A stretch of DNA of 37,464 bases from a virus (IMGVR_UViG_2541047680_000009:1-37464); one strand, 5' to 3'; positions 1 to 11,104 are shown, counted from the stretch's first letter. Notes: generated from the sequence alone by a model not told the origin. Program-made: numbers and translations.

Positions 1-69
1 CTGCAGCGGCGTTGCCGGTGATTTACTGAAAATACCCTGCGGTTTACGGTTAATGGTCAGAGTTACCAT
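1..69 (-). CDS. 5' end of an unidentified protein-coding gene that runs off the window start
   Basis: Minus-strand ATG at 69-67 with GAGG about 12 nt upstream; reading frame stays open to position 1 (MVTLTINRKPQGIFSKSPATPLQ...). Too short for a family call. Confidence 0.3.
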   Translation of the reverse strand, partial: MVTLTINRKPQGIFSKSPATPLQ

Positions 70-664
70 CAATTTTGTTACCTCGCGCTGTCAATGGAAG
101 TAGTACCTCATCCGATATCTGAAAATGTTTTCCGGTGGATGTTACAGCGAATTTCATGTAAGACATGTTGTTGTCGGTATTGTTCAGTACTGTGCGTTGT
201 GAGCGTATTCGTTATCAGACAGAGGGGCAGGGAACAAACGTCAGAGGTTAAGGATATCCGGGAACAAATGGCGTAAACGGACATCTCAGTGCCTGAGAAA
301 CAGTACAGGTCAGGCCATCATGGCCTGCAAACAGAGCCCTGGCGACCCCGTGGCCGAAAACGAAACAATAACCCGCGCGCAGTGCGAGGAATCCGGATGT
401 GAAGCAATCAGCAGGTAATATTAATGGCAGGACCAGCAGGTTCTTTAAACAAACGAACATGCTGTAATTGATATTTTGCTTATTGTATTTTCTTTTTAGT
501 TATTAAATTAATTTATTTACGAAAAATTTTCTGCAGATACAGGATGGGAATTCAGGGTGTCATCACGCCTTATGATGACACCCTTCCCCTGGTTGTGGAA
601 AACCGAAGGATATATCAGGTTCAGCAACAAAATCAGTGAGCTGAAAGATACCAGTCCCCCAGCT

Positions 665-1684
665 TCAGCAGCTTTCACGTAAACATAAACAGGGCTCAAT
701 GAATATCTGATTGCTCCAGTTACCTTCTTTAATTCGTTCCAGCAAAACATTTCCTGCTTCCAGACCAATTTTCCTGTGAGGAACGGCCATTGTTGTTAAT
801 GATGGTTGGCAAACTTTGCTGACGTCACTGTCACCAAATCCTACTACGGCGAGCTCGTCTGGAACTTTGATCCGTCTTCGTTGACATTCATAGAGAACAC
901 CGCAGGCTAACTCATCTGACACACATACCAGGGCATCCAGTTCCGGCCATGCGAGCAAAAATTCCGGTAGTTGTGATGCTCCGGTGGAAAAAACAGGTGG
1001 CAGAGCAGCGTTAATAACACGGTTGGGAGACATATGATGGCGTAACATAGCTTTATACCATCCCTGTAAATGCTGCTGAAAGATCCACTGTTCCTGGTTA
1101 GCGCATAGCAAACCGATATTCTGATAACCACGTTGTACCAGCATATCCGTCAGCTCGAACATTGCTGCAACATTATCAATACCAATGTTGATATCTATCG
1201 GATCAGTACGAATGGCACCGATTTCTATAACAGGAATCGAGGCATTTTTGAGCAAGTGACGCACGGTACTATTATGCTCAACACTAAGCAAAATTGCTGC
1301 AGCGATATTAGAAGCCAGCAGGGTTTCCAGCAGTTTTTCTTCTTGTTCCAGACGATGGCGTGACTCAGCCAGGATTATTTGATACCCCGCTGGTTGTAGC
1401 ACATGTTGCAGCCCGGCAAACATTTCCGTGCATCCCGCTTCAGCCAGGTTTGGCACGACCATTGCGATCGTGTGTGAAGATGCCGATGCCAGTGCGCTTG
1501 CAGTGAGGTTGGGCATATACCCTAATTCATTAACTGCGGCTTCAATCTTCTCCCTCAATTTATCTGAAACTTGTTCGGGAGTGCGTAACGCTCTGGATAC
1601 AGTCATTGTGCCAACTCCCGCGAGTTGCGCGACATCAGCAATAGTGACTTTACCTGTACTACGACGTTTTCGGGTTATTGCCAT
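665..1684 (-). CDS. LacI-family transcriptional repressor (GntR/IdnR-like sugar-acid regulator type)
   Basis: 339-aa ORF; N-terminal HTH VTIADVAQLAGVGTMTVSRALR typical of LacI/GalR family, followed by a periplasmic-binding-protein-like sugar-binding core; AGGA RBS 6-7 nt upstream of the ATG at 1684; divergent from the PTS operon. Confidence 0.9.
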   Translation of the reverse strand: MAITRKRRSTGKVTIADVAQLAGVGTMTVSRALRTPEQVSDKLREKIEAAVNELGYMPNLTASALASASSHTIAMVVPNLAEAGCTEMFAGLQHVLQPAGYQIILAESRHRLEQEEKLLETLLASNIAAAILLSVEHNSTVRHLLKNASIPVIEIGAIRTDPIDINIGIDNVAAMFELTDMLVQRGYQNIGLLCANQEQWIFQQHLQGWYKAMLRHHMSPNRVINAALPPVFSTGASQLPEFLLAWPELDALVCVSDELACGVLYECQRRRIKVPDELAVVGFGDSDVSKVCQPSLTTMAVPHRKIGLEAGNVLLERIKEGNWSNQIFIEPCLCLRESC

Positions 1685-1816
1685 ACAAAATCCTGCTCAG
1701 CGACTACATATGGAGATCTTTTATTACTTATCATCAACGGCTTCCTGCACTGCCAGTAGCAGAGTATACCTCTTAATATCTGCCATAAGTCTGGATTTAA
1801 TCAGTGAAATCTATTT

Positions 1817-1864
1817 TGATAGCGCTATCACAAATTCGAACAATACCTCCTGATAGCGCTATCT
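1817..1864. promoter_or_regulatory. Two LacI-type operator palindromes in the divergent control region (TGATAGCGCTATCA at 1817-1830; TGATAGCGCTATCt at 1851-1864)
   Basis: Perfect 14-bp palindrome with central CG, repeated 34 bp downstream with one mismatch, located between the regulator start (1684) and the PTS EIIA start (1936). Confidence 0.55.
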
Positions 1865-1935
1865 TTGTGATATTGATCGCAGATATACCGTCGTTACTTG
1901 AATACATTCTGGTCATATAAATAAGAAATTAGGGG

Positions 1936-2385
1936 GTGGGAGTGCTTAATATCTGGCTTTCTGATTCAACAATCGCATTACGAAAGAATGCCGCAACCTG
2001 GCAGCAGGCATTAGATATCTGTGCCAGACCGTTACTGGATGCAGAGATAATTACGACGGATTATCTCAGTGCGATAAAGACACAACATGAAAAACTGGGG
2101 CCTTATTATGTCCTGGCACCCGGGCTGGCCATGCCGCATGCCCGACCAGAAGAAGGGGCAAAAGGATTAGGTTTATCATTATTAAAACTTGAAGAAGGTG
2201 TCAGTTTTCATACAGAGGAATTTGATCCTGTAGATGTTATCATTTTACTTGCCGCACCAGACAAACACAGTCATATCGAAATGATATCTGCACTGGCTGA
2301 GTTATTCTCCAGCGAAAAAGATTTACATGAATTGCATCAGGCTCGCAATGTGGAGGAAATAAAAAAGATAATTTCACGGTTCTGA
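1936..2385 (+). CDS. PTS EIIA component, L-ascorbate (UlaC/SgaA) family
   Basis: 149-aa ORF with the motif [20 protein letters not shown], matching the conserved UlaC-type EIIA active-site region ([20 protein letters not shown]). Start ambiguous: GTG at 1936 or 1942, RBS AGGGGGTGGG. Confidence 0.85.
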   Translation: [149 protein letters not shown]

Positions 2386-2463
2386 TTACATTATAAATTC
2401 AGTCTTTTCACAACATTGCGCCGTTGCGTGATGGGACTTCTTCAACTTAAAATGGTGAATATA

Positions 2464-2736
2464 ATGAAAATTATGGCTATTTGTGGCTCAGGGCTTGGTA
2501 GTAGTTTTATGGTCGAAATGAATATTAAAAAAGTTCTGAAAAAAATGGATATAGAGGCGGAAGTGGAACATTCCGATCTCTCATCAGCAACGCCAGGGGC
2601 TGCCGATTTATTTGTGATGGCCAAAGATATTGCTGCCAGTGCCAGCGTACCGGAAAGTCAGTTGGTGGTTATCAACAACATCATTGATATTAATGAACTC
2701 GAAACGCAACTGCGTAACTGGTTAGCAAAACAATAA
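2464..2736 (+). CDS. PTS EIIB component, L-ascorbate (UlaB/SgaB) family
   Basis: N-terminus MKIMAICGSGLGSS matches the phospho-cysteine motif of UlaB-type EIIB (AVCGNGQGSS); ORF open from 2416, alternative ATGs at 2452 and 2473. Confidence 0.8.
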   Translation: MKIMAICGSGLGSSFMVEMNIKKVLKKMDIEAEVEHSDLSSATPGAADLFVMAKDIAASASVPESQLVVINNIIDINELETQLRNWLAKQ

Positions 2737-2752
2737 CCTTAATTGAAGCGAG

Positions 2753-4147
2753 GTGGATATGTTTATCCTTGAAACGCTGAATTTTGTTGTTGATATACTT
2801 AAAGTGCCCGCGATACTGGTCGGCTTGATTGCCTTAATTGGTCTGGTTGCCCAGAAAAAATCTTTTTCAGATGTTGTTAAAGGTACAATTAAAACTATTC
2901 TCGGCTTTATTGTACTGGGCGGTGGTGCCACTGTTTTGGTTGGTTCGTTAAATCCTCTTGGGAGTATGTTTGAACATGCCTTTAATATTCAGGGCATCAT
3001 TCCGAATAATGAGGCTATTGTTTCTATTGCGCTGGAAAAATATGGCGCATCGACGGCCCTTATTATGGCATTTGGTATGGTGGCGAATATTATTGTTGCC
3101 CGCTTTACCCGCCTTAAATATATCTTCCTGACCGGACACCACACATTTTACATGGCCTGCATGATTGGTGTGATTCTGACAGTGGCTGGTTTTGAAGGTA
3201 TATCACTGGTCTTTACCGGTTCTCTTATTCTGGGACTTGTGATGGCATTTTTCCCGGCATTAGCACAACGCTATATGAAGCGTATTACGGGGAATGATGA
3301 CATTGCTTTTGGTCACTTTGGCACTCTGGGATATGTACTTTCTGGCTGGATTGGCAGCGTGTGCGGTAAAGGTTCCCGCTCCACCGAAGAGATGAATTTG
3401 CCCAAAAATCTGAGCTTCCTGCGCGACAGTTCCATCTCTATTTCTCTTACGATGATGGTGATTTATCTGATCATGGCGATCAGTGCTGGTCGTGAGTTCG
3501 TTGAAAGCCAGTTCAGTGGTGGTCAAAACTACCTTGTCTACGCCATCATAATGGCCATCACCTTCGCTGCTGGTGTATTTATTATTCTGCAAGGCGTGCG
3601 TTTAATCCTTGCTGAAATAGTTCCGGCATTTACCGGGTTTTCAGAAAAGCTGGTGCCGAATGCCCGTCCGGCCCTCGATTGCCCGGTTGTGTATCCGTAT
3701 GCGCCAAACGCAGTGTTAGTTGGTTTCTTGTTTAGCTTTTTTGGCGGTCTGGTAGGGCTATTTTTGTTGGGACAGATGAAACTGGTGTTGATTCTTCCGG
3801 GTGTCGTTCCTCACTTTTTTACCGGGGCGGCTGCTGGCGTATTTGGTAACGCTACGGGGGGACGTCGTGGCGCAATGATTGGTGCTTTTGCGAATGGCTT
3901 ATTGATTACCTTCCTGCCAGTACTGTTATTGCCGGTTCTTGGGGCGATAGGCTTTGCTAATACGACCTTTTCCGATGCAGATTTTGGTGCTGTCGGCATC
4001 GTCCTCGGAAACCTGGCACGTTATCTCTCACCTTTTGCCATCACCGGACTTGTAGTAGCGCTATTTGTGCTGCTGGTTGCCTGGAACATTTTCGCCAGTA
4101 ACAAAATCGCTGCCAAAGCGCAGAAGAAGAGTGGAGCCAAATCATGA
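2753..4147 (+). CDS. PTS EIIC permease, L-ascorbate (UlaA/SgaT) family
   Basis: 464-aa polytopic membrane protein; conserved blocks GTIKTILGF, LTGHH, IILQGVRL, LDCPVVYPYAPNAV align with UlaA; stop overlaps the next start (ATGA). Confidence 0.9.
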   Translation: MDMFILETLNFVVDILKVPAILVGLIALIGLVAQKKSFSDVVKGTIKTILGFIVLGGGATVLVGSLNPLGSMFEHAFNIQGIIPNNEAIVSIALEKYGASTALIMAFGMVANIIVARFTRLKYIFLTGHHTFYMACMIGVILTVAGFEGISLVFTGSLILGLVMAFFPALAQRYMKRITGNDDIAFGHFGTLGYVLSGWIGSVCGKGSRSTEEMNLPKNLSFLRDSSISISLTMMVIYLIMAISAGREFVESQFSGGQNYLVYAIIMAITFAAGVFIILQGVRLILAEIVPAFTGFSEKLVPNARPALDCPVVYPYAPNAVLVGFLFSFFGGLVGLFLLGQMKLVLILPGVVPHFFTGAAAGVFGNATGGRRGAMIGAFANGLLITFLPVLLLPVLGAIGFANTTFSDADFGAVGIVLGNLARYLSPFAITGLVVALFVLLVAWNIFASNKIAAKAQKKSGAKS

Positions 4148-4974
4148 ATGTTAAAGAATTGACTCAATTTGCACGGGATATACGTATCCAGACGCTTAAA
4201 TCATTAACTCATCTCGGCTTCGGTCATTATGGTGGCAGCATGTCGGTTGTGGAAACGCTGGCAGTGCTTTATGGCGCTGTAATGAAAATTGATCCTGCTG
4301 CTCCCGACTGGCCTGAGCGTGACTATTTTATCCTGTCCAAAGGACATGCCGGACCTGCTCTCTACAGTACTCTGGCGCTGAAAGGCTACTTTCCACTGGA
4401 AGAATTAAGCACCTTAAATCAGAACGGAACCCGCTTACCAAGTCATCCGGATCGGCTAAAAACGTGTGGTGTTGATAGCACCACAGGATCGCTGGGGCAG
4501 GGGATATCCATTGCCGGAGGGATGGCGCTGTCGCATAAACTGGCGGGGCGCAAGAATCGGGTTTTTTGTATTGTCGGCGATGGCGAACTTAATGAAGGCC
4601 AATGTTGGGAAGCTTTCCAGTTTATCGCGCATCATCGTTTGAATAACCTCACTGTGTTTGTGGACTGGAACAAACAGCAGCTTGATGGTCAACTGGATGA
4701 AATTATTAATCCATTTGATTTGGAAGGAAAATTCCGGGCTTTCGGTTTTGATGTCGTGACAGTGAAGGGCGATGATATTGAGGGCTTGTTGAATGTAGTT
4801 AAACCTGTCCTGCCAGCTGAGGCCAGACCGAGAGTGGTCATTCTCGATAGCATTAAAGGGCAGGGGGTGCCGTGTCTCGAGCAACTCAGTAATTCTCATC
4901 ACTTACGCCTCACAGAAGAGATGAAGGGGACGCTAAACGAAACAATTCGCCAACTGGAGGCTATGCATGATTAA
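4144..4974 (+). CDS. Transketolase, N-terminal (TPP-binding) subunit
   Basis: 276 aa; motifs SKGHAGPALY and GSLGQGIS...GDGELNEGQCWEA typical of the thiamine-diphosphate binding half of split transketolases; translationally coupled to flanking genes. Confidence 0.9.
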   Translation: MNVKELTQFARDIRIQTLKSLTHLGFGHYGGSMSVVETLAVLYGAVMKIDPAAPDWPERDYFILSKGHAGPALYSTLALKGYFPLEELSTLNQNGTRLPSHPDRLKTCGVDSTTGSLGQGISIAGGMALSHKLAGRKNRVFCIVGDGELNEGQCWEAFQFIAHHRLNNLTVFVDWNKQQLDGQLDEIINPFDLEGKFRAFGFDVVTVKGDDIEGLLNVVKPVLPAEARPRVVILDSIKGQGVPCLEQLSNSHHLRLTEEMKGTLNETIRQLEAMHD

Positions 4975-5920
4975 TCTCGCACCGGCAGGACAAAAAGACA
5001 GCATTGAAATGCGCAAAGTTTATGCAGATTTTATCGCGCAACAGAGTAAAAACGTCAGTTCTGTCATTGCTCTTGAGGCTGATTTAATGAGTTCCATGGC
5101 AATGGACAGCGTGGCGCAGGATTATCCAGATCACGTCATTAATTGCGGCATTATGGAAGCCAATGTTATCGGCACAGCTGCAGGGCTGGCCTTAACCGGG
5201 CGCAAGCCATTCGTGCATACCTTTACCGCATTTGCCAGTCGTCGCTGTTTTGATCAACTCTTTATGTCGCTTGATTACCAGGGCGCTAACGTCAAAGTTA
5301 TAGCTTCTGATGCGGGTGTTGCTGCTTGCCACAATGGCGGAACACATATGTCATTTGAAGATATGGGAATTGTGCGCGGGCTGGCGCATTCGGTGGTGAT
5401 GGAGATGACAGATGCCGTAATGTTCAGCGATATCTTGCGTCAACTCGTTGCACTGGAAGGATTTTATTGGATTCGTACCATTCGGAAGCAAGCAGCGAGT
5501 ATTTACGCACCAGGTACAACCTTTACAATTGGCAAAGGGCAGGTATTACGTGAAGGTACGGATGTCACCTTAATTGCTAATGGCATTATGGTGGTGGAAG
5601 CCCTGGAGGCCGCACGTCAACTTGAGCTGGCTGGGGTAAGTGTAGCGGTGATTGATATGTTTACGCTCAAACCCGTTGATCGGATGTTAATTAAAAATTA
5701 TGCCGAAAAAACAGGACGGATCGTAACATGTGAAAACCATAGTATTCATAATGGATTAGGTTCAGCGGTTGCTGAAGTGCTTGTAGAAACTTGTCCTGTG
5801 CCCATGCGTCGGGTGGGGGTTAAAGAGCGGTATGGCCAGGTTGGAACTCAGGACTTTTTACAGAGAGAGTACGGGTTAACCGCGCAAGATATTGTGGCGG
5901 CAGCCAGAGAGCTATTGTAA
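4967..5920 (+). CDS. Transketolase, C-terminal (pyrimidine-binding) subunit
   Basis: 317 aa; transketolase pyrimidine-binding and C-terminal domain organisation; start overlaps the N-terminal subunit gene by 8 nt. Confidence 0.9.
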   Translation: MINLAPAGQKDSIEMRKVYADFIAQQSKNVSSVIALEADLMSSMAMDSVAQDYPDHVINCGIMEANVIGTAAGLALTGRKPFVHTFTAFASRRCFDQLFMSLDYQGANVKVIASDAGVAACHNGGTHMSFEDMGIVRGLAHSVVMEMTDAVMFSDILRQLVALEGFYWIRTIRKQAASIYAPGTTFTIGKGQVLREGTDVTLIANGIMVVEALEAARQLELAGVSVAVIDMFTLKPVDRMLIKNYAEKTGRIVTCENHSIHNGLGSAVAEVLVETCPVPMRRVGVKERYGQVGTQDFLQREYGLTAQDIVAAARELL

Positions 5921-6108
5921 TTCATGGAGTTTGTTTACCATTCTGTTTTTCTTAAAAGTGAGTGTCTGTGCGGTCACTAAACTCGGTAATAAAGCAGTTC
6001 ATTGCAGGATAAGAAGCGTTTGGTTGTGTCGTTTTACCGTAAGAACCGACCGCCGTATGTATCCATTAAGCCAGTATTGGTAACGTAGGTGCCCACCTTT
6101 TCAAACTG

Positions 6109-6291
6109 GTGGGCGCCTGTTATGGAGCAAAAACATTATCCGCAGAACCCCGCAGATCATTTTCAAATGAGTTAAACTTCAAATGGTTAAACTGGCTTTG
6201 CAACCAGGAGCCTCTGTTGCCCGTATTGCCCGGGAACACGATATCAATGATAACCTCCTGTTCAAATGGCTCAGACTCTGGCAGAACGTAA
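6109..6291 (+). pseudogene. Relic of an IS3-family transposase OrfA (HTH region), frameshifted and truncated
   Basis: Two overlapping frames give ...RRSFSNE... and ...KLQMVKLALQPGASVARIAREHDINDNLLFKWLRLWQ, resembling the N-terminal HTH of IS2/IS3-type OrfA (such as ...[25 protein letters not shown]); no intact transposase follows. Confidence 0.45.
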
Positions 6292-6375
6292 GGTAAAGGG
6301 AGATGAAAAAGGCAATAGCAGAACTGAGTGACAGTGAAACCATTCTGGCGTACAGGGTTGGATGGTGAAACTGAT

Positions 6376-6407
6376 AAAAAACCCCCTCTGAAATTCTGTC
6401 AGAGGGG
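6376..6407 (-). terminator. Rho-independent terminator (minus strand) with no recognisable upstream gene
   Basis: 9-bp perfect stem CCCCTCTGA/TCAGAGGGG (6383-6407), 7-nt loop, followed on the minus strand by TTTTTT (6381-6376). Confidence 0.45.
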
Positions 6408-6624
6408 CTAGTCAATAAGGGAATAATATTCAACATGAAGATGTCTTCTGGGAATGTTTATATAGCAAATGCTTTCACTCCGGTAATTAATTTCCGTGAT
6501 TAACTGCTTTCGATCAATAAAGGAATTGCAAAAGTGTGATCTTGTTCACGACATCGTGGATAATAATATGCCTGATGTCTGAATCCGGAAACAGTGCTCT
6601 GGCGGGTTTCATGTGAAGTTGACG

Positions 6625-6658
6625 GATAAAAAATCCGCACGACCAGACAGACGTGCGG
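6625..6658 (-). terminator. Rho-independent terminator (minus strand), orphan
   Basis: Stem CCGCACG/CGTGCGG (6635-6641 / 6652-6658), 10-nt loop, followed on the minus strand by ATTTTTTAT. Confidence 0.4.
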
Positions 6659-7146
6659 TTTACGAAATTCGTAACAAGAGGCTTTTCTACGGATCACGTG
6701 GTGCGTGCCACGTGAAATTTTTGTAGCGCAAAATGTGTGATGTGTAAATACAAGGAAGGAAAAAAGTTAAATCGGTGGAAGTCCATACCTGCCACATGTA
6801 CGTCTGCATTCCTCGTTTTGAACAGAATTCTCACCAGACATCGTGAATTTCTCATTCAATCATCAGAGATATTACCCAGGATTTTTATTGTTTTGTGATA
6901 TCAGCAGTGCAGGTATACAGACGTTAAAGTAATCAGGTTTATTATAACCACCTTTACAAAGTTGTATATGTTTATAATTTAATGATTTTAATGCCAGTCG
7001 TTTTCTGCTGCTTAAATTGAGGTCGCATATTATACACAATAATATTCCTGGCATTATTAAATTAATAAGAGAGGATTCTTATCACTGTATTTTTGCTCCG
7101 CACTACCGTTCTGGCTGGTGAAGTAATAATACAGGAGAATAACAGA

Positions 7147-8241
7147 ATGCTTAAAAGACGTGATGCTTTTTTAAAGAAAAGCGCGCTGGCAGTGAGTGTG
7201 GCCCTGCTGCTCTCATCTCAGGCTTTGGCTCATAAAACAATTACTGATTCAACGGCGGGTATTATCTGGATTGATAATGGCACTCAGTCACTTGAAAGTG
7301 CAAGTGTGATTGACAGAAATGGAAATGCTAACGGTGATGGTAGTGTTACTGGAAAAAACTTTGCTGTTGGTTCCGATGCAATAATTTGGGATGCGGATAA
7401 ATCCATGGCAACAGGAAATAAGACAGCTGTTTTTAATGCAGACAACAGTGTCGCTCTGGGGTATGGCTCTCAGGTGAATGGAGAAAGCAATGTACTTTCT
7501 GTAGGGGCCGGTCCTTCAGGATATGGATTTTCAGTTGATGGTGCACCGGAAACCCGCCGGATTATAAATGTTTCAGATGGTGTTAAGGATAGTGATGCGG
7601 CCACAAAAGGACAGATGGACAACGCCATTGCAGGTGCTGTACGGGTGTCGGGGGATGCCCTGCGCGGTGAGATAGGAGCTGTCTACCGTGATGCTGTTTC
7701 TCATACTGACAGTCAGGTCACAGCAGTACGTGATGAACTGAAGGCAGAGGGAGACAGTCTGCGCGGTGAGATAGGCGGTGTATACAGAGATGCCCGTGCT
7801 CATACTGACAGTCAGGTTACAGCAGTACGTGATGAACTCAGCAGGGATATTATTGCAGTCACATCGGCAGCGGTGGCGCAGACGGATGCAGCAATAGCCT
7901 CAAATACAGCAGCGATAAGGAATAACAGTCATCGTCTGGATTTGACGGAAGCCTGGCAGAAGATGGCGACAGAGAGAATGAATAATATGCAGGAGCAGAT
8001 TAAAGAGAACCGGAAGGAGTTAAGGGAGAGTGCAGCCCAGAGCGCGGCACTGGCCGGTCTTTTCCAGCCATACAGTGTTGGAAAATTTAACGCGACAGCA
8101 GCCGTTGGTGGTTACCGTGATGAGCAGGCCATTGCGGTGGGCGTGGGCTACCGTTTCAGAGAGAATGTGGCAGGAAAAGTTGCAGTTGCTGCAGGTGGGT
8201 CATCCGCATCGTGGAATGCTGGTGTGAATTTTGAGTTCTGA
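7147..8241 (+). CDS. Trimeric autotransporter adhesin, YadA/Eib-like (signal peptide, coiled-coil stalk, C-terminal beta-barrel anchor)
   Basis: AGGAG RBS 8 nt upstream of the ATG at 7147; signal peptide [28 protein letters not shown]; central heptad-rich repeats; C-terminal anchor ending ...AVGVGYRF...GVNFEF as in YadA-family translocator domains. AT-rich upstream region. Confidence 0.8.
7651..7848 (+). repeat. In-frame tandem duplication, 2 x 99 bp (33-aa coiled-coil unit) inside the adhesin gene
   Basis: Copy 1 at 7651-7749 and copy 2 at 7750-7848 are roughly 80% identical; they encode [33 protein letters not shown] and [33 protein letters not shown]. Confidence 0.85.
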
Positions 8242-8264
8242 CAGGTCAGGATTTAGATATCTGT

Positions 8265-8283
8265 CCCGGGGGGAGTCCCCCGG
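8265..8283 (+). terminator. GC-rich perfect palindrome just after the adhesin stop (possible terminator or protein-binding site)
   Basis: CCCGGGGGAgTCCCCCGGG, 24 nt downstream of the adhesin stop codon; no strong T-tract, so terminator function is uncertain. Confidence 0.35.
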
Positions 8284-8302
8284 GATATAATGAGGTACAG
8301 AG

Positions 8303-8758
8303 ATGCTGGATATAATCCTGGCGACGAGAGATATTTATTTTGAAAAAGCCCTGCGAGAGGTATTTGGAACCGTAAGCAGTCGAATCAGATATATAGAAGA
8401 TGCCATATCAGACAGAAGAAGGGTGCAGTCAGGCAGGTCATTCAGATATTATTTTGTATTCTGTGATGATGAGTATACAGATATTGTTCGTATTCTTTTT
8501 ACCGGAGAGGCCTGCTGTATTCTGAATAAGTCGATGCTGAATCTGAGAGCGGCCGGAGGTGTGTTGACGCTGGAAGAGCGCAGAGCGGTACTGAACCGGT
8601 ATTACAGAGGTTTAAGTATTGCGGAGATTACAGAAGAGACGGGGCAGAATGACAAGACGGTATACGGTCATCTTCGTCGTGCACTGCAGCGGTCTGGATT
8701 CCGGAAGGGGCGTTTTATAAAGGGGAGAGAAGTGACGGGGGATTCAGGTGTTGAATAA
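8303..8758 (+). CDS. Small LuxR/GerE-type HTH transcriptional regulator
   Basis: 151 aa; C-terminal LTLEERRAVLNRYYRGLSIAEITEETGQNDKTVYGHLRRALQR fits the LuxR-type HTH pattern (LT.RE..VL......G.S..EIA.....S..TV..H); GAGG RBS 8 nt upstream. Confidence 0.6.
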   Translation: MLDIILATRDIYFEKALREVFGTVSSRIRYIEDAISDRRRVQSGRSFRYYFVFCDDEYTDIVRILFTGEACCILNKSMLNLRAAGGVLTLEERRAVLNRYYRGLSIAEITEETGQNDKTVYGHLRRALQRSGFRKGRFIKGREVTGDSGVE

Positions 8759-9114
8759 TGTATCTTATATTGTGATATCGGTGCTGCTGCTGTTATTTTT
8801 TGTTGTATTTGTGACGAATGGTTAAGAATAAAACATGAGTTGGTGATTATCAGGACAGGTTGCTTGTATATGAAGATAACAAAGGCGGCATTTATTTTTG
8901 CGCTGTCAGTGTGGAGTGTTGCTGTGATATGTCTTTTATTATTTGTACTGATTGTTCTGGGATAGCCATAGTGAAATAAAAAGCTGTCTGAATTAAATTA
9001 TTTTGCACACATGTTTTAATTCTGCACTGAATTCAGAATGGGTAATCAGTGACCGTCCTGACGGTCACTTTAAAGAAAAGGCATTTACACAGAATTACTG
9101 ACAGGCTCTGGCTG

Positions 9115-9453
9115 TCATTCGGCCGATGAACAGTTGCTTAAGACAGGATTATCATTCCCTTCCACCAGATTGGCTTTTTTACCTTTTGTGTACAGTTTAT
9201 ATGAGTATCTTTTATTGATGGCTTCGTAATTGGCTCCGGAGGCCATTTTCATTAGCTGCATAGGTATCATCTCATCCATCTGATTAATCACTGCATATGA
9301 GTTCCCAGCAGTGGTGTTGATATAGACCACCTCCATTGTCTTATTTCCATTACAGACATAAGCTGTTTTTGAGATTTCTTTTGTGGCAGCGGAGGATACC
9401 ATACTGTTGCTAACAAGAATGAGTGCAAGGACGGGAGAAGAGTATTTTTTCAT
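9115..9453 (-). CDS. MliC/PliC-family inhibitor of C-type lysozyme (secreted)
   Basis: 112 aa with N-terminal signal peptide; conserved MliC-like pattern Y.C...........V.Y.......A....................SGA.Y.......Y.....KG..A............C (YVCNGNK...VVYINT...MASGANYEA...YTKGKKANL...SNC); AAGGAG RBS 7 nt upstream. Confidence 0.6.
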   Translation of the reverse strand: MKKYSSPVLALILVSNSMVSSAATKEISKTAYVCNGNKTMEVVYINTTAGNSYAVINQMDEMIPMQLMKMASGANYEAINKRYSYKLYTKGKKANLVEGNDNPVLSNCSSAE

Positions 9454-9958
9454 AATAACTCCTTCTGTAGGTTAAAAAAACAGGTGTTTGATCAGAATTA
9501 TATTAATAATTCATTCATCAGAAAAAAAGGTTTTTGTTATAGCAATAATAATGAGCACAATTGCTTGTGAAACTGGTGCCATTTTACGGTTGCTTAGTGA
9601 TCAGACATGAGATAAATGAAGGGGGATCCGTGAGATAAATAACGAATTGGAGTGGGTTAACATGGGTTCTGGTGAACAGAACTGAAATTCTTTTCCGCTA
9701 TACGATAGATAAGTCGGGCATTGAAATCATCCTTCCTGGCAACTTAGAATCGAGTTTGCTGAAACATGACCCGCAACAAAAAGGATGATTCCAATGACTA
9801 CTCAAAACAATAAGCATGATAGCCTGGATTACTCAGAAAAGCCCAAAAGCAAGCACATCGTGACGTTCGAGCGCGATTCCGGTAGAAAAGGAGAATCGTC
9901 TTCCTCTGCCAATAAAACCACTATGCCGGCAGCCCCTGCCCCAGGGAAAAAATAAACA

Positions 9959-10591
9959 TCATTCATCGTTCGTTGCACGAACGCGCCTGATCTCCACTCT
10001 GGCAATCTGATCTGCTGGAATATAGGTTGCCAGAGCTCCCCAGTACTTATCAACCACGCCTTTATACTCTTCCCATTCGTTACTGCCTGAAGGGCTGCTG
10101 TGCGTGACGTAAAGAACCATATCGCCTTTATTCCCCAGGGTAAACGGACCGTTAGGCCACTCTTCAAAGTTCCCTGGCAGCCGTGACATCATACCGGAAC
10201 CATCGCGAAGAATCACTCTGACCTCGGTAACGCTGAAGCCTGTTTGATCAAACATTGCCTGCCATGCTGAGCTGGTATCGTCAGACCATGAAATATCATT
10301 ATTCCACAGTAATCTGTACATCCATTTGCGACCGTACCTGCGCCACCACGCACCGCATGTAACGGCACACAGAAGTGCTGGTGGTGTTGCCAGCCAGGCA
10401 TTCAGACCTGCCCACATAACAGCCTGGTAAGCCATCATTGCTGTCAGGCCAAAAATCAGCGAAGAAAAAGTCACCTCAATGGGCTTGTGGTGATCCTTCA
10501 GTCCCACATTCGCAATAAAATACCCAATATAGCCACTGGTCAGGGTCACCAGTGTTGCCCATGGCAGATTTAACAACGAAACGTCAAACAT
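9959..10591 (-). CDS. Membrane protein of unknown function (about 3 N-terminal TM helices plus about 120-aa soluble C-terminal domain)
   Basis: GGAGA RBS 5 nt upstream of the ATG at 10591 (MFDVSLLNLPWATLV...); sits immediately downstream of the mor terminator, so likely a separate transcription unit at the extreme end of the early arm. Confidence 0.55.
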   Translation of the reverse strand: MFDVSLLNLPWATLVTLTSGYIGYFIANVGLKDHHKPIEVTFSSLIFGLTAMMAYQAVMWAGLNAWLATPPALLCAVTCGAWWRRYGRKWMYRLLWNNDISWSDDTSSAWQAMFDQTGFSVTEVRVILRDGSGMMSRLPGNFEEWPNGPFTLGNKGDMVLYVTHSSPSGSNEWEEYKGVVDKYWGALATYIPADQIARVEIRRVRATNDE

Positions 10592-10630
10592 ATTTTCTCC
10601 CTGCATCCTGAATACTAAAGAGAGAGCATA

Positions 10631-10660
10631 AAAAAAGCACGGTAAGGGGTCTACCGTGCT
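10631..10660 (-). terminator. Rho-independent terminator downstream of mor
   Basis: Perfect 9-bp stem AGCACGGTA/TACCGTGCT (10636-10660), 7-nt loop, followed on the minus strand by TTTTT. Confidence 0.7.
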
Positions 10661-10705
10661 TTTATACAATAAGGAGATTTTTGAAAGGACTTTAACAAGC
10701 AGGAA

Positions 10706-11104
10706 TTATCTGGATTTGTTAACGTCTTTCGTCTCCTCTGGCAGATCTTCATCAAACAACCTGCCCTGCATCCGATCCAGTTCTTCTTTTCTGACCCGCT
10801 TAACCACGCTGTAGACCCACTGAAGCGAAACACCAAACTTGCGGGCCAGTTCGTGGTGGTTGCGTCCGTTAAACTCCCTGAAGATTTCCCGGTCGCGCTG
10901 ACTGACCTTCCATACCATGCCCATCGGGAAATAAACGTTTTGCCCGCCCCAGACCTGCATCATTCGGTTCGCGACGGCCTGACCAATCTGGTCGGCAATT
11001 GCGGGCTCAATATCAATAATCTCGCGAACGGTCTCAGAGGTATGCTGTGCCAGCTCCACCAGGAGTTCCGGCCCTTTACTTCGAAACTGATTCAGGTCGC
11101 TCAT
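10706..11104 (-). CDS. mor: Mor-family transcriptional activator (Mu middle operon regulator)
   Basis: 132 aa; C-terminal FREFNGRNHHELARKFGVSLQWVYSVVKRVRKEE matches the Mor/C-family HTH region (Mu Mor: WNDFNGRNVSELTTRYGVTFNTVYKAIRRMRR). Confidence 0.85.
   Translation of the reverse strand: MSDLNQFRSKGPELLVELAQHTSETVREIIDIEPAIADQIGQAVANRMMQVWGGQNVYFPMGMVWKVSQRDREIFREFNGRNHHELARKFGVSLQWVYSVVKRVRKEELDRMQGRLFDEDLPEETKDVNKSR

Follow-up and report, generated by a model that had tools for sequence, protein, structure and literature searches.

Positions 7147–9453 of the window (the whole 37,464-nucleotide stretch of DNA that was analyzed) code for three proteins: an adhesin, an HTH protein, and a predicted lysozyme inhibitor of the PliC type. 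The region forms an AT-rich islet in the accessory part of the Escherichia coli chromosome and is composed of two separate units. We consider it likely that these are an adhesin/HTH cassette resembling the Eib loci and a convergent pliC gene. Gene content, homologies, allele structure, distribution, and position outside the neighbouring prophage were observed directly. All the elements described in the original prediction for this DNA were found at the coordinates it had given.

Composition and distribution of the islet

The islet was found in 141–184 of 5,426 complete E. coli genomes (~3%), always in the chromosome, and is therefore the accessory host-interaction cluster that had been proposed and not a piece of core genome. 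The three genes were adjacent and nearly identical in 141 of the 5,426 genomes. Many of the carriers were poultry and human isolates, including some from extraintestinal infections. PTS/transketolase genes flank the islet on one side and nanE/PTS genes on the other, and all three genes already carry an annotation in the ~3% of sequenced strains that have them.

The GC content was 0.40 upstream of the adhesin gene (5921–7146), 0.37 between the HTH gene and pliC (8759–9114), 0.40 in pliC, and 0.30 in 9454–9597; it was higher in the adhesin gene (0.49) and in the prophage (0.55). A search of Rfam with 5800–10000 returned no match, and PADLOC reported nothing meaningful in the region.

The AT-rich segment 6290–7146 (plus strand) is a non-coding leader that probably holds the promoter of the adhesin gene. 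None of its ORFs has a family match, and the segment is 94% identical to the DNA that precedes a head-swapped 515-aa allele in SCU-115, another strain. It shows no similarity to the eib upstream regions, and in a promoter scan shuffled sequence gave more sites than it did. Immediately 5′ of the leader, at approximately 6109–6284, there is a transposase fragment.

The adhesin is a short trimeric autotransporter

The mechanical ORF of the adhesin gene runs from a TTG at 7093 to 8241. In all homologs the protein starts at MLKRR, which corresponds to the ATG at 7147, and the gene (7147–8241, plus strand) thus encodes 364 aa. The exact protein is present on public E. coli contigs. Its segments are a signal peptide (7147–7230), a short head (7231–7545), a neck (7546–7626), a stalk (7627–8061), and an anchor (8062–8238).

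The predicted YadA-type C-terminal anchor was borne out by the profile search: Pfam YadA_anchor (PF03895) matched with 57.9 bits against a cut-off of 22.7, over the whole 60-position profile, and the YadA anchor structure 2lme was matched at 1.2e-17. At the N-terminus, judged by eye, there is a candidate signal peptide of 28 aa with the usual n-h-c layout and an AxA site before HK. A passenger of head, neck, and coiled-coil stalk is indicated by the alignment of the neck with that of SadA, by the prediction of residues 151–303 as one helix, and by the hydrophobic periodicity of the stalk (3.72 residues in the repeat part and 3.50 in the membrane-proximal part). The helix had a pLDDT of 75–89 over residues 190–290 in a monomer AF2 model that was unreliable outside the stalk (mean pLDDT 48.7) and was left out of the fold searches. 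The head is very small, and its assignment is weak because the matches to Pfam YadA_head and YadA_stalk were under threshold.

By homology, the adhesin is a short type Vc trimeric autotransporter, predicted to be a homotrimer. It would be exported by a Sec signal peptide and would carry a minimal YadA-like β-roll head, a neck, an uninterrupted stalk of ~150 residues, and a four-strand anchor; after trimerization the anchors would form a 12-strand pore in the outer membrane.

The adhesin is related to the Eib proteins

A local BLASTP gave 40% identity between the adhesin and EibD (E = 2e-49) over residues 83–365, in a numbering with one extra N-terminal residue. The identity was mostly near the C-terminus and was high across the last ~90 residues. 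In a multiple alignment with EibC, EibD, and EibE, to which the comparison was confined, the adhesin was 35%–38% identical to them. This relationship emerged only with the full-length EibC, EibD, and EibE taken from phage records; sequence searches of the PDB with the single protein or a profile gave no significant match to the EibD structures (2xzr had an E value of 0.94 and 2xqh was absent).

With the Eib proteins (EibC, EibD, and EibE of the ECOR-9 prophages, and EibG) the adhesin shares the type Vc architecture, a nearly identical membrane-proximal left-handed coiled coil and anchor, and, 3′ of its gene, a hairpin followed by an ORF-156-like gene in the position and orientation found at the eib loci. 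It differs from them in having a much smaller head and in lacking the ~150-aa N-terminal domain, the saddle, and the Asp–Tyr motif that binds IgG Fc. Both the N-terminal domain and the saddle were absent from the alignment, and the stalk helix was predicted as continuous; 33-aa stalk repeats take the place of the saddle/Fc-motif region. Residues D387 and Y388 of EibD (RIDYAV), confirmed in the AF151675 translation, align to Ser–Ala beside a six-residue gap, in a gapped region of the alignment. In addition, the Eib genes lie in lambdoid prophages, whereas the adhesin gene lies in a chromosomal island and not at the end of a lambdoid prophage. Of the Eib-like adhesin originally described, the relatedness was therefore upheld, but not the features that define an Eib (identity is <50%, and domains, residues, and prophage setting differ). 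On this comparison the protein is Eib-related yet not an Eib. Since the defining features fail, IgG binding is not to be assumed, and the database label “immunoglobulin-binding protein” is probably wrong for this lineage.

Other short adhesins were also compared. The Cla proteins have been set apart from Eib by a pairwise similarity of <50% (Kotaka et al., Nat Commun, 2026; PMC13534694). Cla and Yal resemble the window adhesin in being Eib-related, with <50% identity to the canonical Eibs, and in lacking the N-terminal domain; Cla does not bind IgG, yet it confers chain-like adherence and serum resistance (PMC13534694). With the 400-aa adhesin of STEC435 and JNEC-KY176, a Cla candidate that does have a saddle, the window protein shares only 37% identity. 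Yal, compared by description only, is like the window adhesin in that neither a saddle nor an N-terminal domain is present (PMC13534694); however, Yal groups with Saa, whereas the window adhesin is closer to EibD (40% identity) than to Saa (29%).

We also considered eYadA of APEC TW-XM as the published name of this gene and ruled it out. It, too, is a short member of the YadA family, from avian pathogenic E. coli (Vet Res, 2026; PMC12955052), but it is unrelated and is encoded at another locus, between cueR and ybbJ; significant sequence similarity between the two adhesins was not found.

Stalk repeats and length of the alleles

The stalk contains two tandem repeats of 99 bp (7660–7857, plus strand), as had been predicted. 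TRF reported a period of 99 at 7660–7838 (1.8 copies, 87% matches). The full units, 7660–7758 and 7759–7857, are identical at 73 of 99 nucleotides and encode two 33-aa units that open with LRGEIG(A/G). At the junction 7875–7890 (plus strand), where the BLAST segments against strain MSHS133 overlap, other alleles have a 165-bp (55-aa) stalk module. In the long allele, this module lies between copies of an imperfect direct repeat, GGCG(T/C)A(T/G)ACGGATGCA.

The suggestion that the repeat varies in length held when copy numbers were compared across strains, which had two, three, or four copies. Alleles were counted in 89 full-length sequences among 120 cluster representatives. Two repeats and the module were present in 47 of the 89 (419/421 aa), and three repeats and the module in 30 (452/454 aa), besides one 452-aa sequence counted with only two repeats. 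The module was absent from eight sequences with three repeats (391–401 aa) and from two with four (426/432 aa); in one further sequence of 421 aa, two repeats were counted and the marker motif of the 55-aa module was not found. The allele of the window strain, with two repeats and no module, is the shortest, and occurs on at least 12 public contigs.

The 33- and 55-aa blocks are both multiples of 11, so the register of a hendecad coiled coil would be kept when they are gained or lost; the argument rests on arithmetic and a simple hydrophobicity spectrum. An α-helix rises ~0.15 nm per residue. The blocks would then correspond to three and five hendecads and would change the length of the stalk by roughly 5 or 8 nm each, with the register unchanged.

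Distant relationship of the HTH protein to the ORF-156 family

Between the adhesin and HTH genes there is a GC-rich hairpin (8264–8285, plus strand; fold energy −30.6 kcal/mol, z −2.8) that is not followed by a T-run. A stem-loop is annotated at the equivalent position 3′ of eibC, eibD, and eibE. The HTH gene (8303–8758, plus strand) encodes a 151-aa protein with an α/β N-terminal domain and a C-terminal HTH, which is probably a transcription regulator.

This protein was aligned end to end with the ORF-156 family (hhalign 95.3%, E = 2e-8, 130 columns). Pairwise comparisons with ORF-156 gave E values of 2e-4 and 5e-6 at 22% identity, and phrog_6585 matched the N-terminal half (E = 3.9e-4). An ORF-156-family gene lies directly 3′ of the adhesin gene in eibC, eibD, eibE, phage GER2, and two more Eib-like loci; in STEC435/JNEC-KY176 it is the second gene 3′ of the adhesin, after a 68-aa ORF. 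Because an ORF-156 homolog follows eibC, eibD, and eibE, we regard the adhesin and HTH genes as a conserved two-gene cassette. The ORF-156 homolog P0172 has no adhesin gene upstream.

From these matches, the HTH protein and the uncharacterized ORF-156 are distantly homologous. The HTH protein resembles the members orf-156C, D, and E and phrog_6585 in size, position, predicted C-terminal HTH, and end-to-end profile, and differs from them by the low identity and by its above-threshold match to Pfam Sigma70_r4_2 (30.9 bits, threshold 25.7); most ORF-156 members have no Pfam match, and one of 17 matches GerE (2e-4).

The protein had been described as a LuxR-type regulator. The HTH part of this stands, but Pfam GerE (PF00196) was not matched and Sigma70_r4_2 was the best hit. 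Since that profile passes and since, at the fold level, the HTH is matched as well by sigma region 4 as by LuxR/GerE, the term “LuxR-type” is only approximately right for this ORF-156-family member. The fold appears to resemble RcsB, FixJ, NarL, and GerE. In the NarL/FixJ regulators (RcsB, EvgA), however, the N-terminal domain has ~120 residues and an acidic pair after strand 1, whereas here it has ~80 residues and a conserved Thr–Arg in place of the pair, and there is no Pfam GerE match. Only the Asp that closes strand 3 has been retained. The domain does not have the features of a phosphorylatable receiver.

Relatives keep the ORF intact at 96% identity or more, and the 90% cluster of the protein has 309 member sequences. 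A word-index search and a phmmer search of 1.84 billion representatives for homologs outside E. coli returned nothing beyond the cluster of the protein itself, which is from E. coli, and some weak matches to HTH domains in general.

Downstream of the HTH gene, a mechanical ORF (8870–8965, plus strand) could encode a hypothetical hydrophobic peptide of 31 aa. This putative ORF occupies the place of orf-60 in the eibC and eibD loci, and orf-60 also has a hydrophobic end. Between the two plus-strand genes and the convergent pliC there is a perfect inverted repeat (9049–9068) that resembles a terminator hairpin; GTGACCGTC-CTGA-CGGTCAC was the stem in the fold of 9030–9120.

The third gene is an ortholog of pliC

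The third gene (9115–9453, minus strand) encodes a 112-aa protein, predicted to be a periplasmic inhibitor of c-type lysozyme. It matched Pfam MliC (PF09864) with 46.4 bits against 22 and the NCBIfam equivalog NF010363, “c-type lysozyme inhibitor,” with 155.7 bits against a cut-off of 127. The structure of Salmonella PliC (3oe3) was matched at 7e-40 over residues 23–111, with ~72% identity as counted by hand, and the mature Salmonella chain aligns from residue 23. The signal peptide is of the Sec type with no lipobox cysteine, the first Cys of the protein being residue 34. The two cysteines of 3oe3 have their counterparts in C34 and C108; this two-cysteine feature has been described for the PliC/MliC inhibitors (PMC2267010). 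A secreted inhibitor of the MliC family had been predicted; the family was right, and the subtype is the periplasmic PliC and not the lipoprotein MliC.

Salmonella PliC (SEN1802/STM1249) inhibits HEWL, as shown experimentally, and the 112-aa protein matches its tryptic peptide MASGANYEAIDK at all but one residue (PMC2267010). The likeness extends over the whole mature protein and includes the segment MASGANYEAI(D/N)K, and the 112-aa protein is by sequence an ortholog of the periplasmic type. It differs from the Salmonella protein in being found in E. coli, where the family is represented in the core genome by MliC, a lipoprotein. An uncharacterized homolog of pliC was reported in 2012 for a small number of E. 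coli genomes (PMC3458809).

The neighbouring prophage

A BcepMu-like transposable prophage adjoins the islet and lies outside it (9598–37464). Escherichia phage PhiKM (genus Bcepmuvirus) shares 96.6% identity with it. It is Mu-like, with Mor and GemA domains, and a prophage beside the islet had indeed been described. The window is collinear with the prophage-free E. coli strain MSHS133 up to 9597, where collinearity stops; the prophage end, which begins with TG and repeated GAGATAAAT motifs, opens with TGATCAGACATGAGATAAATGAAGGGGGATCCGTGAGATAAAT. On five other contigs with the identical adhesin allele, the nanE/PTS genes come directly after pliC and there is no prophage. The islet is thus not prophage cargo, and the proposal that it might be carried at the prophage end was not supported.

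Discussion

The HTH protein would be cytoplasmic, with a receiver-like N-terminal domain in which the acidic pocket is missing, and an HTH of the LuxR/sigma-region-4 type, and it most likely controls transcription of the cassette. We infer this regulatory link, and likewise the biochemical activities of all three products. The serum resistance conferred by EibG, ClaA, and ClaB does not depend on IgG binding (PMC13534694). Because these relatives behave in this way, the adhesin most likely mediates adhesion or autoaggregation together with complement resistance, and does not bind IgG Fc. Host c-type lysozyme is most likely the target that the periplasmic PliC product binds and blocks. The prophage would have transposed in the window strain only, to a site 144 bp upstream of the start codon of pliC.

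Several other explanations were weighed. A genuine Eib with non-immunological binding of IgG or IgA Fc would be in line with the NCBI names of identical and nearly identical proteins, which include “immunoglobulin-binding protein,” with the identity to EibD and the highly conserved membrane-proximal coiled coil and anchor, and with the ORF-156-like gene that the loci have in common. We hold it to be very unlikely, given the Ser–Ala opposite D387/Y388, the missing saddle and N-terminal domain, and the nonsignificant matches to the EibD fragments; furthermore, mutation of the corresponding Asp in EibG (D391) abolished Fc binding, and ClaA and ClaB, which lack it, do not bind (PMC13534694). That the shortest allele is a decaying, non-functional gene seems about equally improbable. 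It lacks one or two of the repeats and the 55-aa module of the common alleles, is much rarer (12 contigs against at least 1,000 for the 452-aa allele), and truncated adhesin copies do occur in other strains. Its reading frame is intact, however, both deletions are in frame and multiples of 11 residues, and the identical protein is on at least 24 contigs from different samples. As for a moron of the adjacent prophage, the direct contact with the prophage end and the position of Eib-type cassettes elsewhere, at lambdoid prophage ends after the tail-fibre genes, would favor it, but the collinearity with MSHS133, the prophage end that begins at 9598, the five contigs without a prophage, and the absence of any islet gene from the related PhiKM leave it next to no probability.

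The alternatives that concern regulation have somewhat more in their favor, and we still judge both to be unlikely. The HTH protein might not regulate the adhesin at all, and might be a phage-derived relic or have other targets: its family was restricted to E. coli in the phmmer search and has no homolog of known function, and one ORF-156-family member has no neighbouring adhesin gene. Against this, the gene order is held across at least four adhesin lineages that share 37%–40% identity while the small protein has diverged to 22%, and the ORF is kept intact at 96% identity or more in its relatives (309 sequences in the 90% cluster). All three genes might form one co-regulated module against innate immunity, in which the HTH regulator would govern both complement resistance and lysozyme inhibition. 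They are adjacent and nearly identical in the 141 genomes, lysozyme and complement act jointly on Gram-negative bacteria, and MliC affects the serum resistance of APEC (PMC3458809). Yet pliC runs towards the other two genes, with a hairpin in between, strain SCU-115 and other genomes have the adhesin and HTH pair without pliC, no pliC adjoins any of the Eib-type cassettes that were examined, and Salmonella PliC has been described with neither an adhesin nor an HTH partner. Two units, the cassette and pliC, remain the preferred reading.

These findings extend known families and hold little surprise for a specialist. Short Eib-related adhesins are only now being divided into functional lineages (Eib, Cla, and Yal); the ones that have been tested give complement resistance and chain-like adherence, and the lineage of the window adhesin has so far been unstudied. 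The small HTH partner is a candidate regulator for the whole Eib-type family. Tentatively, we propose a joint idea that is possible, though the odds are against it: whole-hendecad modules of 33 and 55 aa would allow recombination to tune the reach of the head past the O-antigen and capsule, and the ORF-156-like pseudo-receiver/HTH proteins would be dedicated cassette regulators of Eib, Cla, and related adhesins. If the latter is true, it would explain the poor and conditional expression of these adhesins.

Genomic setting of the islet

The window is the beginning of Escherichia coli scaffold GCA_000456045.1 KE698817.1, with exactly matching gene coordinates. Positions 1-9597 were collinear with the chromosome of the prophage-free urinary isolate MSHS133 at 99.5-99.8% identity, and the sole break was a 165-bp gap within the adhesin gene. 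The MSHS133 gene order is a LacI-family regulator, PTS IIA/IIB/IIC components, two transketolase subunits, a transposase fragment, the adhesin followed by the HTH protein, the lysozyme inhibitor on the opposite strand, and nanE-like and PTS genes.

In the window, the region 665-5920 holds the LacI-family regulator, divergent from an operon of ascorbate-type PTS IIA/IIB/IIC and split transketolase genes. It is an accessory sugar-utilisation cluster inherited together with the islet (7147-9453). The AT-rich flanks noticed at the outset were confirmed: the adhesin gene has a GC content of 0.49 and the prophage 0.55, against 0.40 in the sequence leading up to the adhesin gene and 0.30-0.40 around the lysozyme inhibitor gene pliC.

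A BcepMu-like transposable prophage starts at 9598 with TG and two GAGATAAAT motifs and shares 96.6% identity with the Bcepmuvirus Escherichia phage PhiKM. Over 9598-37464 its early genes lie on the minus strand and its late genes on the plus strand, in divergent blocks, and its other end lies outside the window. The original prediction considered that the islet might be carried at the prophage end. Our results showed that it lies outside the prophage, and the prophage was missing from other carriers whose adhesin allele is identical. Its position beside the islet is strain-specific: by transposition it landed 144 bp upstream of the start codon of pliC. The intervening stretch (9454-9597) has 30% GC, and the insertion may have cut pliC off from some of its upstream regulatory sequence.

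The first 1.1 kb of this prophage end (9598-10745) is unmatched in PhiKM, which has a different small gene there, so it appears to be cargo that varies at this end of the phage. Within it, 9959-10591 (minus strand) encodes a protein of 210 aa predicted to lie in the membrane (phrog_12870, with no function assigned in that phrog). PADLOC gave no match on 9598-10745.

The adhesin belongs to an uncharacterised lineage

The computed ORF begins with TTG at 7093, whereas every homolog begins with MLKRR, which corresponds to the ATG at 7147 and gives a gene (7147-8241, plus strand) encoding 364 aa. The proposed YadA-type C-terminal anchor was recovered by Pfam YadA_anchor (57.9 bits against a threshold of 22.7) and by a match to the solved YadA anchor structure (1.2e-17). 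The protein consists of a signal peptide (residues 1-28), a small head with a few YadA-like repeats that score below the Pfam threshold (29-133), a neck that aligns with the SadA neck (134-160), a stalk (about 151-305), and the anchor (306-364). The monomer AF2 model was poor overall; it gave a single unbroken helix at 151-303, with good confidence at 190-290. The hydrophobic periodicity of the stalk was 3.72 in the repeat part and 3.50 near the membrane. Values between 11/3 and 15/4, such as that of the repeat part, are typical of right-handed coiled coils in these adhesins.

The signal-peptide coding segment, comprising the first 81-87 nt of the gene (within 7147-7233), is also present with 95-97% identity in genes of many E. 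coli genomes that are annotated as "hypothetical protein" or "Tat pathway signal sequence protein". A plasmid gene gave a 44% match to residues 1-138. These genes resemble remnants of a 5' end or modules exchanged by recombination.

Identity to EibD, an immunoglobulin-binding adhesin of E. coli, was 40% over residues 83-365 (E 2e-49), with a peak in the last ~90 residues. The adhesin was 57% identical to an Enterobacter cloacae plasmid adhesin, 37% to a 400-aa adhesin of STEC435 and JNEC-KY176, about 29% to Saa, and about 26% to YadA. Unlike EibC, EibD, and EibE, it has neither the N-terminal domain nor the saddle. In the alignment, EibD D387/Y388 is replaced by Ser-Ala, beside a gap. This residue pair is printed as "D378-Y388" in a 2026 paper (PMC13534694); translated AF151675 has Ala at position 378 and D387 next to Y388.

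In EibG, mutation of the corresponding Asp abolishes Fc binding while serum resistance is kept; that Asp is absent from ClaA and ClaB, which show no Fc binding yet confer serum resistance and chain-like adherence (PMC13534694). Because serum resistance persists in these proteins without Fc binding, we infer by analogy that the window adhesin would function in adhesion and serum resistance without binding IgG. It is an uncharacterised lineage within a known adhesin family.

In STEC435 (locus L005, 5008-7083), the adhesin, whose gene is identical in JNEC-KY176, has a saddle and no N-terminal domain, and the locus adjoins a type I secretion gene cluster. This protein is a probable candidate for one of the Cla adhesins, an EibG-like lineage described in 2026.

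Stalk repeats and head exchange

TRF located the expected 99-bp tandem repeat at 7660-7838; its two full units encode two 33-aa stretches. The predicted length variation was also found, as discrete allele classes among 120 cluster representatives: 419/421 aa (two repeats plus a 55-aa module), 452/454 aa (three repeats plus the module), 391-401 aa (three repeats, no module), and 426/432 aa (four repeats, no module). The window allele, with two repeats and no module, is the shortest class; it is rare and real, occurring in at least 12 contigs. A 16-nt direct repeat, imperfect and coding for A-(Y/Q)-T-D-A, flanks the 165-bp module. Since 33 and 55 are both multiples of 11, each insertion or deletion would keep the hendecad register. 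With the textbook rise of about 0.15 nm per residue, the largest length difference between alleles would be about 13 nm.

Strain SCU-115 (locus L017, 6903-8450) has a 515-aa allele that shares its upstream region, signal peptide, stalk, and anchor with the window but has a different and larger head. Heads are therefore exchanged too.

The HTH partner gene

The 151-aa product of the next gene (8303-8758, plus strand) had been called a LuxR-type regulator. The HTH was upheld, as it passed Pfam Sigma70_r4_2; the GerE/LuxR assignment was not supported by Pfam. The AF2 model (pLDDT 77) has an N-terminal domain of alternating strands and helices followed by the helical HTH, and its best structural matches were RcsB, FixJ, NarL, GerE, and sigma region 4. 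True receiver domains have an acidic pair, which this protein lacks.

No relatives were detectable outside E. coli. The protein is a distant homolog of ORF-156, the family (phrog_6585) encoded downstream of eibC, eibD, and eibE, with pairwise E values of 2e-4 and 5e-6 and end-to-end colinearity; hhalign against the family gave a probability of 95.3% (E 2e-8), and the match to phrog_6585 had an E of 3.9e-4. An ORF-156-family gene was directly 3' of the adhesin gene at all Eib-type loci examined, bar two exceptions. In STEC435/JNEC-KY176, a 68-aa ORF lies between the two genes. The other is P0172 (164 aa; loci L019-L021, 4001-4495), an orphan copy that adjoins hpaBC and has neither an adhesin gene nor a remnant of one upstream; in the contig collection, 391 blocks are indexed for it. 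A GC-rich hairpin separates the adhesin and HTH genes, in the same position as in eib loci. Conserved gene order is the one link that points to the HTH protein as a probable transcription regulator of the cassette.

Downstream, a small ORF (8870-8965) would encode a 31-aa hydrophobic peptide (MKITKAAFIFALSVWSVAVICLLLFVLIVLG). It occupies the relative position of orf-60 in the eibC and eibD loci, which likewise ends in a hydrophobic segment.

The lysozyme inhibitor

The 112-aa product of pliC (9115-9453, minus strand) passed Pfam MliC and the NCBIfam equivalog for c-type lysozyme inhibitor. The MliC-family assignment thus stands at family level; the closer likeness is to Salmonella PliC, with the 90-aa mature protein about 72% identical (3oe3, 7e-40), a signal peptide without a lipobox, and both cysteines kept. 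Salmonella PliC was experimentally shown to be a periplasmic inhibitor of hen egg-white lysozyme (PMC2267010), and as early as 2012 a few E. coli genomes were noted to contain a pliC homolog (PMC3458809). This inhibitor is of a known type. As pliC is convergent with the cassette, is separated from it by a hairpin, and is missing beside the cassette elsewhere, including SCU-115, we treated it as a neighbour and not as a cassette member.

Distribution and decay of the island

The HTH-pliC segment was present in 184 of the 5426 complete genomes (141 at ≥80% coverage), always on the chromosome, and many carriers came from poultry, humans, and pets. The islet is thus not conserved core genome. Full transketolase genes occurred in 133 complete genomes. 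A further 234 keep only the 179-bp transketolase 3' end (window 5742-5920) and the transposase fragment that follows it (6109-6284), without the rest of the PTS-transketolase operon, a pattern indicating that IS elements have eroded the island repeatedly.

IS elements have eroded the locus in both SCU-115 and PSJ-14. The SCU-115 cassette lies inside an IS-riddled island adjoining aerobactin genes. In PSJ-14 (locus L018, 7374-7940), a related adhesin gene is reduced to a truncated remnant of 188 aa, and the resistance genes sul2, strAB, tet(A), and floR follow directly. This distribution and the IS erosion indicate that the islet is part of a decaying mosaic island, neither core genome nor independently mobile.

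The original observation was confirmed, and its interpretation held in part. All three islet genes are already annotated in public genomes; together they represent an uncharacterised adhesin lineage, its small, conserved partner, and a lysozyme inhibitor of known type.
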